Origin: Escherichia phage vB_EcoM_SHAK9454
Length of the DNA: 39,471 nt
Reading direction: 5' to 3' (one strand)
Sequence record: OR594184
Position 1 is the first letter of the stretch. The number at the start of each line of letters is the position of its first letter. A program made the position numbers and the translations under genes. Positions 2,961 through 8,233 of the stretch are shown one piece after another. The notes beneath the pieces are model-generated. The model did not search any database and was not told the origin of the DNA. It saw nothing but the letters and a program-made list of their open reading frames with translations.

Positions 2961-3062
2961 CAAGGCTATAGACTTAAGGTCTAAGACATGTTAGTCAAAG
3001 ACTATATCCTCTTACACCATGGGGCCGACGATAGCTTAATCAATATTATTTCAAATTACCTA

Positions 3063-3343: not shown

Positions 3344-3400
3344 GCGACTAACTACAGGGCCTTTGAGTCTACATCTGAAGGCCCTGACTGATAGTCACTA
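3344..3400 (+). promoter_or_regulatory. RNase III-like processing hairpin (early family, copy 1)
   Basis: Imperfect hairpin GACTAACTACAGGGCC ... GGCCCTGACTGATAGTC; conserved CCTGACTGATAGTCACTAAC motif about 20 nt before the start codon. Confidence 0.45.
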
Positions 3401-3418
3401 ACTTAAAGGATGGACACT

Positions 3419-3664
3419 ATGAAACACTTAAGCACAATCACTAATCGCAATGAAGTATTCGTGAACACTAAAGGTTATGCGTGGATTCAGCTTAAAGAGA
3501 TGACAGGAGCGCGTCACCGTGTGGTAGTGCGCAAGGTATCAAGCAAGCAGTTCAGCAACTACAGCGTCGATACTGTGCGTATAGACAACGAGACATACCT
3601 GATAGACTCGCAGATAACCGTGAGTCCTACAGTGGGCGTCTCAGCTCCTTATTTCACTAACTGA
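3419..3664 (+). CDS. Hypothetical early protein (81 aa)
   Basis: ORF with AAGGA 3406-3410 eight nt before ATG 3419; the ATG at 3410 overlaps the RBS and is less likely. Confidence 0.6.
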   Translation: MKHLSTITNRNEVFVNTKGYAWIQLKEMTGARHRVVVRKVSSKQFSNYSVDTVRIDNETYLIDSQITVSPTVGVSAPYFTN

Positions 3665-3666
3665 GA

Positions 3667-3719
3667 GTGATTAACTACAGGTCGTTAGACTGATAGCGGC
3701 CTGACTGATAGTCACTAAC
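3667..3719 (+). promoter_or_regulatory. RNase III-like processing hairpin (early family, copy 2)
   Basis: AACTACAGG ... CCTGACTGATAGTCACTAAC motif upstream of the Ocr-like gene. Confidence 0.45.
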
Positions 3720-3747
3720 ACATAATTAACTTTGAGAGGATATAACT

Positions 3748-4251
3748 ATGGAACGTAATGCTAACGCATACTATGAGCTGCTGGCTACAACCGTTGAGGC
3801 ATTTATCGAGCGTATTCAGTACGACCACCTGACTCAAGATGACGACTACAGCGCTGCGCTGCATGAGGTCGTAGACGGTCAGGTTCCACACTATTACCAC
3901 GAGATTTTTACGGTGATGGCTGCTGATGGTATAGACAACGAGTTCGAAGACTCTGGGATGATACCTGAAACCAAGGACGTAACGCGTATCCTACAAGCTC
4001 GCATCTATGAGGCACTTTATAACGACGTGTCTAATAGCTTGGATGTAGTCTGGTTTGAGGATGAAGAGGCAGACGAAGAGGATGAATATTGGGTAGTTGA
4101 CGCTAAAACAGGCGCAATAATTGTGCAAGCTGTAGCTCTTGAGGTCGCTACTGCATGTGCCAATGTTAACTATGCGGCAGGTCGCCACCTGAAGGTGGAA
4201 GACATCAATGATAACGTAGTGTTCGACCCTGCGGCTGAGGACTGCGAGTGA
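3748..4251 (+). CDS. ocr: Ocr-like DNA-mimic anti-restriction protein (T7 gene 0.3-like) with a ~50-aa C-terminal extension
   Basis: VPHYYHEIFTVMAADGIDNEFEDSGMIPETKDVTRILQARIYE matches the recalled T7 Ocr core; acidic tail EDEEADEEDEYW; ORF continues ~50 codons beyond; strong RBS GAGAGGA. Confidence 0.8.
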   Translation: MERNANAYYELLATTVEAFIERIQYDHLTQDDDYSAALHEVVDGQVPHYYHEIFTVMAADGIDNEFEDSGMIPETKDVTRILQARIYEALYNDVSNSLDVVWFEDEEADEEDEYWVVDAKTGAIIVQAVALEVATACANVNYAAGRHLKVEDINDNVVFDPAAEDCE

Positions 4252-4396
4252 TGGTAACTTATGGCCTCTGCCAGCACCACGTCACTAACGCCCGGCTTAT
4301 GGTCAAGACCGGGCAGTTAGACCACGATTGGGCTATGCGTCTCTTGAAAGTGGTCTACAGGAGACGCAAGCGTATACACGACAGTTTACACGCTAA

Positions 4397-4447
4397 GTGA
4401 CAGACTACAGGTCATCAATGCTGGTGGCCTGACTGATAGTCATTAAC
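4397..4447 (+). promoter_or_regulatory. RNase III-like processing hairpin (early family, copy 3)
   Basis: AGACTACAGG ... CCTGACTGATAGTCATTAAC motif upstream of the ORF at 4464. Confidence 0.4.
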
Positions 4448-4463
4448 AACTGAGAGGGAAGAT

Positions 4464-4691
4464 ATGAACACAATCACTGGTGCCATAACCAAAGGTTTTC
4501 GAGCAATTTTCGGTGAAACGCAAGAAGTATGCACCAATCATAAATTCGTACTTTCTTGCGTAGCAGGTGACGAGTTTGACGGGTTCGATAAACTGGTGGT
4601 TTGCGACCATTGCGGACAAGAGGCTATCCAACACTCAAACGGTAAATTTGAATTAATAGACGATAGCCTTACAGAAGGAGACGGCGAGTAA
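4464..4691 (+). CDS. Hypothetical early protein (75 aa) with Cys pairs, possible zinc ribbon
   Basis: RBS GAGAGGGAAG then ATG; C-x-N-H ... C-x-x-x-x-x-x-x-x-x-x-x-x-x-x-CDHC arrangement; acidic C-terminus. Confidence 0.6.
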   Translation: MNTITGAITKGFRAIFGETQEVCTNHKFVLSCVAGDEFDGFDKLVVCDHCGQEAIQHSNGKFELIDDSLTEGDGE

Positions 4692-4823
4692 CCTAAATAA
4701 ACAGGAGAGAACCAAATCATAGCTTGACCATAACACTGACGTGATGGTACTGAGTGGTAGACGAGAGGTCATCGACTGATAGGTGGCCTCAAAGATTACC
4801 ACTTACATTGATAGGAGTTAACT

Positions 4824-4928
4824 ATGAGCACCGCAATCATCTGGACTATCTCAGGCTTCGTAGCGTGGGGAATGTTTACTCTAGTCTGCAAACTACCGGT
4901 CCTTACTCAACTGTTATGGGGCTTATGA
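4824..4928 (+). CDS. Small hydrophobic peptide (34 aa)
   Basis: AGGAG 4813-4817 six nt before ATG 4824; MSTAIIWTISGFVAWGMFTLVCKLPVLTQLLWGL; stop overlaps the next start (ATGA). Confidence 0.4.
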   Translation: MSTAIIWTISGFVAWGMFTLVCKLPVLTQLLWGL

Positions 4929-5128
4929 CTATGAGTATCGCACTATTGATAGCCATAGGCTATGGAATTATCGCCTACGTGCTGGTGAGAGACATCAACA
5001 AAGCGCGTAAAGTCTACAAATTCAAATATGTACGTCTGGGTAGCTGGACTGTACGTCAACCTAACGGACGATTCATGCGCAACTTAGCGAACGTCTGGGA
5101 TATAGCAACTCTTGGGAGCAAACTGTAA
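4925..5128 (+). CDS. Hypothetical small membrane protein (67 aa)
   Basis: ATG 4925 in frame with track ORF 4754..5128; N-terminal hydrophobic segment MTMSIALLIAIGYGIIAYVLV then basic tail; translationally coupled to neighbours. Confidence 0.5.
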   Translation: MTMSIALLIAIGYGIIAYVLVRDINKARKVYKFKYVRLGSWTVRQPNGRFMRNLANVWDIATLGSKL

Positions 5129-5454
5129 TGAACAAGTCATACGGGATTAATCTGGTACACTCTATGGACGCAGAAATGAACATGTTAAGCCTACTGGCTA
5201 CCGGGTATCGTCACGGAACGTCAAGTCACACCGCACGTCAACAGCAGGAGCGGGACCGTGTACTTCAGGCACGACTTCGGGCCGAGGGCCATAAGTACGA
5301 GCTGATGGGTCTGATATGTGGTGGACGACCAATAACCGACGATGGTAAACTTCTGGTATCAGGCTGGAAGGCGATAGACCAACGGTCATCCATCAAGCAC
5401 ACGACACATGGTGACTTCAGCCATCTTCACGCTAACCCACTGATATGCAAGTAA
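5128..5454 (+). CDS. Hypothetical early protein (108 aa) at the position where T7 has gene 0.7
   Basis: ORF whose ATG overlaps the upstream stop (TAATG); no kinase motifs seen. Confidence 0.6.
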   Translation: MNKSYGINLVHSMDAEMNMLSLLATGYRHGTSSHTARQQQERDRVLQARLRAEGHKYELMGLICGGRPITDDGKLLVSGWKAIDQRSSIKHTTHGDFSHLHANPLICK

Positions 5455-5459
5455 TTATG

Positions 5460-5482
5460 ACTTAACTATCACTATAGGACTC
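5460..5482 (+). promoter_or_regulatory. Phage RNAP promoter immediately upstream of the RNA polymerase gene
   Basis: ACTTAACTATCACTATAGGACTC, +1 G at 5477; leader 5477-5551 contains direct repeats AAGTGAAAGAC x2 and GACTTTAAGT x2. Confidence 0.75.
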
Positions 5483-5551
5483 AAGGTCTAAGACTCAAAG
5501 TGAAAGACCAAAGAGACTTTAAGTGAAAGACTAATAACAAGGACTTTAAGT

Positions 5552-8233
5552 ATGAGCGTCATCTCTATTGACAAACACGACTTCTCTGATGTGTCGAACG
5601 CCATTGAGCCGTTTAACCTGCTGGCTGACCACTACGGGCAAGACCTTGCAGTCAAACAGCTTCAGCTTGAGCATGAGGCATACACTGAAGGCGAGCGACG
5701 TTTCATCAAGAACCTTGAGCGGCAGACTGAGCGCGGGGAACTGGCAGACAATCAGGTCGCCAAGCCTTTGATGCAGACTCTGGTCCCTAAGATTGCGCAA
5801 GCCGTCAGGGAGTGGCACGAAGGCCAAGACGGGAAGCTGTCAACCTCTCGTCCGAGTGTAGCGTTCACCATGTTGAGCACTGAAGAGAAGGCCGTAAAGG
5901 AACGATCTCTGCGCATCTCCTGTGAGTCTGCTGCGGTTATCGTACTGAAGGTCATACTCTCCAAGCTGGTCAAGCCTGAAGGGATCCCGATTACACCTAT
6001 GGCCTCAGCGATAGGTCGCACACTTGAGGACGAAATCCGCTTCGGTCGCATCCGTGACAAAGAGAAAGAGCACTTCAAGAAGGCGATAGCTGATAACCTG
6101 AATAAGCGGGCCGGGGCGTCATATAAGAAAGCCTACATGCAAGCGGTCGAGGCGTCCATGCTGGAGCAAGGCCAACTGGAAGATGCGTGGGGGACTTGGA
6201 GTCCTACAGAGGCCGTCCACGTTGGCATCAAGATGCTCGAGATTGTCATCCAGTCAACACAACTGGTCGAGCTTAAGCGGTACGGTGCTGGTAATGCAGC
6301 GGCTGACGTAGAGATGGTCCACCTGTCAGACTTCTGGGTCAAGAAGATGGCACAACGAGGATTCAGCCTTGCGGGTATCGCCCCAGTCTACCAGCCTTGC
6401 GTCGTCCCACCTAAGCCGTGGACTGGTGTCGTAGGTGGTGGGTACTGGGCCAAAGGTCGCAGACCGTTACCATTGATTCGCTTAGGGTCTAAGTCTGCGG
6501 TAGCACGTTATGAAGACGTATACATGCCTGAAGTCTATGACGCTGTGAATATCATCCAGAATACACCTTGGAAAGTGAACAAGAAGGTATTGGACGTGGT
6601 GAACATGGTCGAGAAGCTGAACAACACGCCTATTGATGACATCCCTCAGATGGAACCGCTGAAGCCTGAGGACTATGCTGGTGAAACCGAGGAGGAACTC
6701 AAGGCATGGAAGAAGGCTGCTGCTGGTATCTATCGCCGCGAGAAGGCCAGACAGTCACGCAGATTATCGCTGAACTTTATCGTTAACCAAGCAAACAAGT
6801 TCTCTCAGTTCAAGGCCATCTGGTTCCCGTACAACATGGATTGGCGAGGTCGTGTCTACGCTGTGCCGATGTTCAACCCTCAGGGTAACGACATGCAAAA
6901 GGGTCTTCTGACTCTGGCAGTCGGTAAGCCTATTGGTGCTGATGGTTTCAAATGGCTGAAGGTTCACGGTGCAAACTGCGCGGGTGTCGATAAAGTCACC
7001 TTCGAGGAGCGTATCAAGTGGGTGGAAGATAACCACGACAACATCATGGCTGCTGCCAAGGCACCGATGGATAGCATTGAGTGGTGGGGCAAGTTAGACT
7101 CTCCGTTCTGCTTCCTAGCGTTCTGCTTCGAGTATGCTGGCGTAATGCACCACGGCTTGTCTTACTCCTGCTCGCTGCCGATAGCGTTCGATGGGTCCTG
7201 CTCTGGGATTCAGCACTTCAGCGCTATGCTTCGTGACCACATCGGTGGACATGCAGTAAACCTGACGCCATCCGGTAAGGTCCAAGACATCTACCGCATT
7301 GTGTCTGACCGCATTGAGGAGCAGCTTAAAGTACTGCTGATTAACGGCACTGACAACGAGATGGTCACTCACGAGGATAAGAAAACTGGTGAGATTACCG
7401 AACGTATCAAGCTGGGGACACGAGAGCTGGCCCGTCAGTGGCTGACATACGGTATGTCACGCAAGGTCACTAAGCGTTCAGTCATGACTCTGGCATACGG
7501 GTCGAAAGAGTACGGCTTCGCAGACCAAGTTTACGAGGACATCGTGATGCCAGCGATTGACTCAGGGTCTGGCGCTATGTTCACTGAACCAAGCCAAGCG
7601 TCTCGCTTCATGGCAAAGATGATTTGGGAAGCTGTGAGTGTGACAGTAGTTGCTGCGGTTGACGCGATGAAGTGGCTTCAAGGTGCTGCCAAGCTGCTGG
7701 CTGCTGAAGTGAAGGACAAGAAGACTGGAGAAATCCTGAAGCCTTGCCTTCCGGTACACTGGGTCACACCTGATGGTTTCCCTGTCTGGCAGGAATACCG
7801 CAAGAAGGACACCACTCGTCTGAACCTGATGTTCTTAGGGTCATTCAACCTTCAGCCTACCGTCAACAAAGGCACGAAGAAAGAGCTGGACAAGCACAAG
7901 CAGGAGTCAGGCATTAGCCCGAACTTCGTCCACTCACAAGATGGTAGCCACCTCCGCAAGACTGTAGTCCACACTCACCGAAAGTATGGCGTGATGTCAT
8001 TCGCAGTGATTCACGATAGCTTCGGGACCATCCCGGCTGACGCTGAGTATCTGTTCCGTGGAGTCCGTGAGACGATGGTAGAGACTTACCGCGATAACGA
8101 TGTGCTGCTTGACTTCTACGAGCAGTTTGAATACCAGCTTCACGAGAGCCAGCGCGACAAGTTGCCTGAGCTTCCGAAGAAAGGTAAACTGAATATCGAA
8201 GACATCTTGTCTTCAGACTTTGCATTCGCTTAA
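5552..8233 (+). CDS. Single-subunit DNA-dependent RNA polymerase (T7 gene 1-like)
   Basis: 893 aa; DGSCSGIQHFSAMLRD (motif A), HDSFGT (motif C), C-terminal DFAFA, specificity-loop region TRLNLMFLGSFNLQP. Confidence 0.98.
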   Translation: MSVISIDKHDFSDVSNAIEPFNLLADHYGQDLAVKQLQLEHEAYTEGERRFIKNLERQTERGELADNQVAKPLMQTLVPKIAQAVREWHEGQDGKLSTSRPSVAFTMLSTEEKAVKERSLRISCESAAVIVLKVILSKLVKPEGIPITPMASAIGRTLEDEIRFGRIRDKEKEHFKKAIADNLNKRAGASYKKAYMQAVEASMLEQGQLEDAWGTWSPTEAVHVGIKMLEIVIQSTQLVELKRYGAGNAAADVEMVHLSDFWVKKMAQRGFSLAGIAPVYQPCVVPPKPWTGVVGGGYWAKGRRPLPLIRLGSKSAVARYEDVYMPEVYDAVNIIQNTPWKVNKKVLDVVNMVEKLNNTPIDDIPQMEPLKPEDYAGETEEELKAWKKAAAGIYRREKARQSRRLSLNFIVNQANKFSQFKAIWFPYNMDWRGRVYAVPMFNPQGNDMQKGLLTLAVGKPIGADGFKWLKVHGANCAGVDKVTFEERIKWVEDNHDNIMAAAKAPMDSIEWWGKLDSPFCFLAFCFEYAGVMHHGLSYSCSLPIAFDGSCSGIQHFSAMLRDHIGGHAVNLTPSGKVQDIYRIVSDRIEEQLKVLLINGTDNEMVTHEDKKTGEITERIKLGTRELARQWLTYGMSRKVTKRSVMTLAYGSKEYGFADQVYEDIVMPAIDSGSGAMFTEPSQASRFMAKMIWEAVSVTVVAAVDAMKWLQGAAKLLAAEVKDKKTGEILKPCLPVHWVTPDGFPVWQEYRKKDTTRLNLMFLGSFNLQPTVNKGTKKELDKHKQESGISPNFVHSQDGSHLRKTVVHTHRKYGVMSFAVIHDSFGTIPADAEYLFRGVRETMVETYRDNDVLLDFYEQFEYQLHESQRDKLPELPKKGKLNIEDILSSDFAFA

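Follow-up and report, generated by a model that had tools for sequence, protein, structure and literature searches.

A predicted C-terminal domain extends the Ocr DNA-mimic protein of K1F-like Kayfunavirus phages

We analysed a stretch of 39,471 nucleotides from Escherichia phage vB_EcoM_SHAK9454 (sequence record OR594184; this whole stretch is referred to below as the window). The window is a complete T7-like genome in circularly permuted form, and every large ORF lies on the + strand. It contains two adjoining copies of a perfect 193-bp direct repeat, at 2424-2616 and 2617-2809. Most likely they are the terminal repeats of the left and right ends of a linear genome, placed head to tail, which would put its physical left end near 2617. 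Counted from there, the Ocr gene begins ~1.13 kb from the left end, as it does in phage K1F. Short imperfect tandem repeats with 27-nt and 16-nt units were also present at 2823-2924. Ocr is an early gene near the left genome end, located upstream of the phage RNA polymerase (5552..8233, + strand, from the ORF list), and the arrangement is syntenic with that of K1F. It is followed by a gp0.4-like gene, three small early ORFs and then the RNA polymerase; no gene of the size of gp0.7 (kinase) was found between Ocr and the RNA polymerase, either in the window or in K1F. The gp0.4-like gene (4251..4400, + strand) encodes a protein of 49-50 aa belonging to the T7 gp0.4 family (phrog_5058, E 4e-25), and its syntenic counterparts in three related contigs (L007, L008 and L009) were assigned to PF26807 (Phage_T7_GP04). 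Its ATG overlaps the TGA of Ocr as TGATG at 4251. Over the region 3400-5600, the window was 98.4% identical to LNA5 and 97.9% identical to LM33_P1, both of which are Kayfunavirus. An 84-aa ORF at 3410-3664 (phrog_10124, E 1e-39), annotated in Mt1B1_P3 and IMEP24, lies upstream, so Ocr is not the first early gene here.

The Ocr gene (gene 0.3) occupies 3748..4251 on the + strand in the ORF list and encodes 167 aa from an ATG start. A Shine-Dalgarno sequence, GAGAGGA, could be read at 3734..3740 (+ strand), 7 nt before the ATG at 3748. Residues 8-95 matched the Pfam ocr family (PF08684) with an E-value of 4.4e-28 and 98.2 bits against a cut-off of 25, and the PHROG match of the protein was phrog_2568, 'ocr-like anti-restriction' (E 1e-51). 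In a phmmer search, residues 11-113 aligned with residues 11-116 of the 117-aa T7 Ocr (PDB 1s7z/2y7c; E 1.2e-23 for 1s7z). As the alignment stops at residue 113, the canonical similarity ends within the acidic run EDEEADEEDE, and T7 Ocr has no counterpart of the remaining 54 residues (114-167). The DNA-mimic core, residues 1-95 (3748..4032, + strand), was delimited by Pfam, by the T7 Ocr alignment and by an AF2 model in which it is all-helical, with helices at 7-26, 35-59 and 75-95. The full protein contains 39 D/E residues against 8 K/R; the core has a net charge of -15 and the linker one of -10, and the extension domain and the C-terminal tail each carry -3. This ORF is gene 0.3 (Ocr) of a K1F-like Kayfunavirus and its Ocr core is bona fide.

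T7 Ocr, in which 34 of the 117 residues are Asp or Glu, is a dimeric DNA mimic. It blocks type I R-M and BREX methyltransferases, and it is sensed by PARIS, which it triggers. By homology only, the window protein would likewise form homodimers resembling bent B-DNA and inhibit type I R-M or BREX methyltransferases. The two proteins share a homologous core, in which the blocks VPHYY..IF.VMA..GID and TKDV.RILQARIYE are almost identical, as well as extreme acidity, helical structure of the core and the position of the gene, early and near the left end, upstream of the RNA polymerase. They differ in length (117 aa in T7, 167 aa here) and in what follows the core. The window protein has a conserved SNSxDVVWFE segment in place of the final part of the last core helix. 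What is the acidic tail in T7 is here an internal linker, and beyond it lies an alpha/beta domain of 48 residues that is absent from T7 Ocr.

The linker region, residues 96-113 (4033..4086, + strand), comprises the DVVWFE segment and the acidic stretch EDEEADEEDE. Alignment, conservation and the AF2 model mark it as the counterpart of the T7 Ocr acidic tail, with DVVWFE conserved. The full-length AF2 model predicted no secondary structure between residues 96 and 113. Among homologs the linker ranges from ~0 to 25 residues in length: it is nearly absent in CLB_P1, and the acidic block is duplicated in Mt1B1_P3, P0098 and P0109. This variable length, together with the lack of predicted structure, suggests a flexible tether.

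The extension domain itself (YWVVDAKTG...VVFDP) spans residues 114-161, i.e. 48 residues (4087..4230, + strand), as defined by AF2, dN/dS and homolog searches. It is followed by a C-terminal AAEDCE and the TGA stop, read directly from the sequence at 4231..4251 (+ strand). When the extension was modelled alone, AF2 returned a beta-beta-alpha-beta-beta fold with a pLDDT of 91.2 and a pTM of 0.73. The same topology was obtained in the full-length model, with strands at 114-118 and 124-129, a helix at 131-143 and strands at 148-151 and 157-159, at pLDDT 84-89.

We then compared homologous sequences of the domain. Seven extension residues (G145, H147, V150, V157, V158, D160 and P161) were invariant in an alignment of 46 sequences, and W115, T121, G122, E151, D152 and D155 were nearly so. 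With 119 aligned sequences, five extension residues remained invariant, and strands 1, 3 and 4 and the loop VEDINDNVVFDP were almost fixed. Most of the variation among the 119 was found in strand 2 and on the helix surface (residues 123-146), a pattern expected of an evolving interface. The median dN/dS (Nei-Gojobori, 8 phages) was 0.42 in the extension, compared with 0.23 in the core. A value below 1 points to purifying selection on the extension, yet at about twice the non-synonymous rate of the core. These figures bear on the view that the role of the extension is structural or that it is a passenger close to neutral, which might stabilise the protein, cap its acidic tail or alter its oligomeric state but would have no target of its own and be kept mainly by descent. 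The constraint looser than that of the core speaks for a passenger, but a dN/dS clearly below 1, the residues that stay invariant in both alignments and the good conservation of a surface loop all speak against it, and we consider this view unlikely. Taken together, the models and the substitution pattern indicate that the extension is a real, autonomously folding and constrained domain. The first-pass annotation had described an Ocr core with an acidic tail that continues in frame into an extra C-terminal domain. This description was borne out by the PF08684 and 1s7z matches, by the ~54 further residues, by the confident independent fold predicted by AF2 and by the conserved frame; the peptide that it had quoted corresponds exactly to residues 116-167.

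Allelic differences in the extension cluster on a single face of the domain. At residues 139-146 (4162-4185 in the window), the helix allele shared by the window and its closest relatives, ANVNYAAG, is a minority one. The consensus helix allele, AKDHYAIG, is found in ~90% of sequences, and K1F has a third allele, AKELYEEGFHMQ.

The distribution of the long form was examined next. Using the whole protein as a query, tblastn gave Ocr-like matches in 572 phage records, 93 of which covered at least 80% of the query. The extension alone produced 71 matches among 50,697 phage records, every one of them at an Ocr locus; at least 80% of the extension was covered in 70 of the 71, and the weakest match was IMEP24, a deletion fusion. 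In a large protein collection clustered at 90% identity, more than 115 clusters showed the long-Ocr architecture, with lengths of 162-179 aa. The hosts of the extension-bearing phages were mostly Escherichia, with Salmonella, Citrobacter, Hafnia, Providencia, Enterobacter and others also represented. All extension-bearing records whose classification was inspected, including that of the type phage K1F, belonged to Kayfunavirus. K1F gp0.3 itself (YP_338090; 169 aa, NC_007456 1114..1623) is of the extended form, and so public databases have contained a long Ocr since 2005, when the K1F genome was deposited.

The window protein shows the pattern by which we recognise these proteins, namely YWVVD...G.H..VED.ND.VVFDP after the acidic run and a total length of 162-179 aa. 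We refer to them as K1F-type long Ocr, which is an informal group with no formal family name. The two-domain architecture and the signature YWVVD..TG...G.H..VED.ND.VVFDP..EDCE are common to the window protein, K1F gp0.3 and the proteins of LM33_P1, CLB_P1, SH3 and Ro45lw. Full-length identity to the window Ocr was 99.4% for LNA5, 96.4% for SHAK7854 and 95.8% for Pipis; over the extension only, it was 93% for LM33_P1 and 66% for K1F. Allelic detail is the sole difference between the window protein and the long Ocr proteins of Kayfunavirus. These comparisons indicate that the long form is the normal Ocr of K1F-like Kayfunavirus and that the window gene is an ordinary member, 95-99% identical to deposited Ocr-like genes.

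The same data bear on whether the long frame is genuine. If a true stop near codon 117 had been lost by a sequencing or assembly error, the extension would be an artefact, and some metagenome assemblies do contain frameshifted variants in which Ocr stops at 117 or 123 aa. Against this, the long frame is conserved in more than 100 independent clusters and in 71 phage genomes, its substitutions are of the coding type and it encodes a confidently predicted fold, which together rule out chance and such an error and leave the artefact a negligible probability. Given how many independent sequences, well over 100, retain the extended frame, there is no error at the expected stop, a point that the first-pass annotation had marked for checking. 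The idea that the extension is unusual found no support: the 71 phage records, the clusters and K1F gp0.3 make extended Ocr proteins common and the extension an ordinary family feature, which is the result that the annotation itself had named as refuting its finding.

We searched for relatives of the extension outside Ocr. A profile built from 19 extension sequences and run against 1.84 billion representatives gave seven matches, none of which was a genuine relative: they are long repetitive proteins aligned in several short stretches and hence spurious. A word-indexed search for the extension returned only two leftover ORFs, both derived from frameshifted Ocr genes. Nothing significant was found in Pfam, PHROGs, NCBIfam or the PDB sequences. 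Two candidates were considered and rejected, HTH_64 (E 0.025; its 15 bits fall short of the cut-off of 27) and a botulinum toxin (E 0.12). A resemblance, noted by eye, to beta-beta-alpha proteins of the DUF2188/DUF1508 type was also set aside, as no profile match for the window extension supported it. An HMM of the extension did not match any other ORF of the window, so that no internal paralogue was detected, and no stand-alone relative was found in phage genomes or among the 1.84 billion representatives.

Structural searches gave a similar result. Foldseek comparisons of the extension with the PDB and BFVD gave nothing at E <0.001, and the best BFVD neighbours were uncharacterised phage proteins of 50-63 aa. 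The T4 antitoxin Dmd, AcrIF9, ClpS and the C-terminal-domain motif of L7-L12 partly share topology and size with the extension, at sequence identities of 9-21%. This is a resemblance and is no evidence of membership or of function. On these searches, which assign it no function, the extension is best described as an orphan domain of a common small alpha/beta packing, found solely in this phage group and there always fused to Ocr.

Fusion with a downstream early gene, here the gp0.4-like one, had been proposed in the first-pass annotation as a source of the long ORF. Deletion fusions do occur at this locus (P0100, P0120 and IMEP24, described below). However, the gp0.4-family gene is present intact and separately at 4251..4400 (phrog_5058), which shows that the extension is not the downstream gene; the extension is not homologous to it, has no match to a PHROG, Pfam or NCBIfam family or to another ORF of the window, and has no stand-alone ancestor in phage genomes or in the 1.84 billion representatives. 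This origin was not borne out and is very unlikely. The extension may derive from an ancient fusion of Ocr with a gene that has since been lost.

Short Ocr proteins closely related to the window protein were informative about how the extension is gained or lost. Those of Kayfunavirus CR44b (114 aa) and Przondovirus P510 (112 aa) have a core that is 81-88% identical to that of the window over residues 1-97. Like it, they contain the DVVWFE/IVWYE segment, terminate in ...EEDCE or ...EEDCDD and are encoded by genes that overlap the gp0.4-like one, but they do not have the 53 codons between two GAGGA repeats, that is, the whole extension. Comparison of the window with CR44b placed the left copy of this 5-bp direct repeat at 4078..4082 and the right copy at 4237..4241 (both + strand). 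The short Ocr gene of CR44b (locus L002, 1090-1180) is without exactly the 159 nt (53 codons) between the starts of the two repeats, and its flanks are collinear with those of the window. The right copy lies within the final codons of Ocr and is also the Shine-Dalgarno sequence of the gp0.4-like gene, which accounts for the ...EDCE end common to long and short Ocr. Judged from these sequences, the extension could have been acquired in a single gain in the Kayfunavirus lineage or been removed by an indel at the GAGGA microhomology; the short forms of the CR44b type could be either ancestral or secondary losses.

Several further variants were found in which the long frame is disrupted. An additional G in TATTGGG produces a 117-aa Ocr and a leftover ORF of 59 aa; this was present in three runs of one study (L006, at 3006-3016, L007 and L008). 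A separate frameshift after YWVVDAK, which yields an Ocr of 123 aa, was found in two other runs (L009, at 1070-1572, and L010). Both frameshifts are metagenome variants, and gene callers report their leftover ORFs as separate small proteins (P0128 and P0129). In-frame deletion fusions were of three kinds. In P0100, the extension is joined to the C-terminus of the gp0.4-like protein; in P0120, Ocr is joined to the 75-aa ORF found at 4464..4691 in the window; and in IMEP24 (L005, 1162-1722), the fusion is to the C-terminus of a downstream early gene, a homolog of SH3 gp4. We had considered the IMEP24 tail as a module swap, but this was rejected when tblastn traced it to the C-terminus of that separate downstream early gene. 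The Ocr of Salmonella phage PRF-SP2 (L004, 1055-1438) has 127 aa, with a T7-like C-terminal helix and the end ...DSVVFDHAAAEDCE. Of the K1F-type extension it retains just the last strand, ...SVVFDHAAAEDCE, and the tail, and from its sequence it looks like a recombinant or a partial deletion. Deletions in the early region seem to be frequent in these phages.

The independent frameshifts, the deletion fusions, the PRF-SP2 remnant and the CR44b indel indicate that the domain is dispensable for viability in at least some settings. According to PMC3439906, EcoKI restriction is still blocked by T7 Ocr from which the final 7 or 17 residues have been removed, indicating that the C-terminus tolerates change and is a permissive place for an addition. 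Repeated loss in natural isolates and metagenomes, with no evident loss of viability, would also suit a passenger, as would the coexistence of long and short forms with similar core identity in one genus. On the other side, the domain is kept in 71 of the ~572 Ocr-bearing phage records and across several host genera.

We favour the view, with a probability of about one half, that the extension is a tethered protein-binding module which acts together with Ocr, maybe by contacting a defence component or by masking Ocr from a sensor. Two observations lead us to infer a module that works with Ocr: the domain was never found alone or on another carrier, and its variation is greatest on one surface. 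In this model, the acidic tail would serve as a tether of variable length between the Ocr core and the extension domain. In the T7 structure, the C-termini are located at opposite, distal ends of the dimer. If they are placed likewise in the long form, one copy of the extension would sit at each end. There it could add a contact to a component of the host defence or to a sensor of Ocr, and this contact could tune the target range of Ocr or its visibility. Since the extension would not be needed for basic Ocr function, phages could lose it repeatedly.

A more specific, tentative idea is that the extension is a counter-counter-defence head that neutralises or evades a host system which senses or resists Ocr; in K1/ExPEC E. 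coli this could be a PARIS-like sensor or a particular R-M/BREX variant. Ocr of the K1F type would in that case combine two anti-defence functions, and the repeated loss of the domain would reflect hosts in which it is a liability. The first-pass annotation had raised a second anti-defence activity, and the extension could alternatively be a fully independent second inhibitor that happens to be fused to Ocr and blocks an unrelated defence such as a toxin or a nuclease, in the manner of Dmd or an Acr. We regard full independence as doubtful.

Ocr is the textbook DNA-mimic anti-restriction protein, and studies of BREX inhibition and PARIS sensing now centre on it, nearly all of them carried out with the 117-aa T7 protein. 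A genus of therapeutic-type coliphages, which includes K1F, LM33_P1, CLB_P1 and others, carries a longer Ocr with a conserved orphan domain, a two-domain form of this well-known anti-defence protein that is so far uncharacterised. The gene was already known as an annotated Ocr-like gene. As for the extra domain, the searchable full-text literature that we covered, which did not include the K1F genome paper, contained no description of it or of its function. If the domain changes which defences are blocked or triggered, it would affect the prediction of host range for these phages and supply a small inhibitor fold not known before; should it have no measurable effect, it is a lineage-specific decoration.

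Finally, we observed that Ocr, whether long or short, is mis-annotated as 'protein kinase' or as 'similar to N4-like RNA polymerase' in several genomes. GenBank records with such annotations include those of ZH4, CY1, IME177, LM33_P1 (LT594300), P510, Vec13 and SHAK7854.
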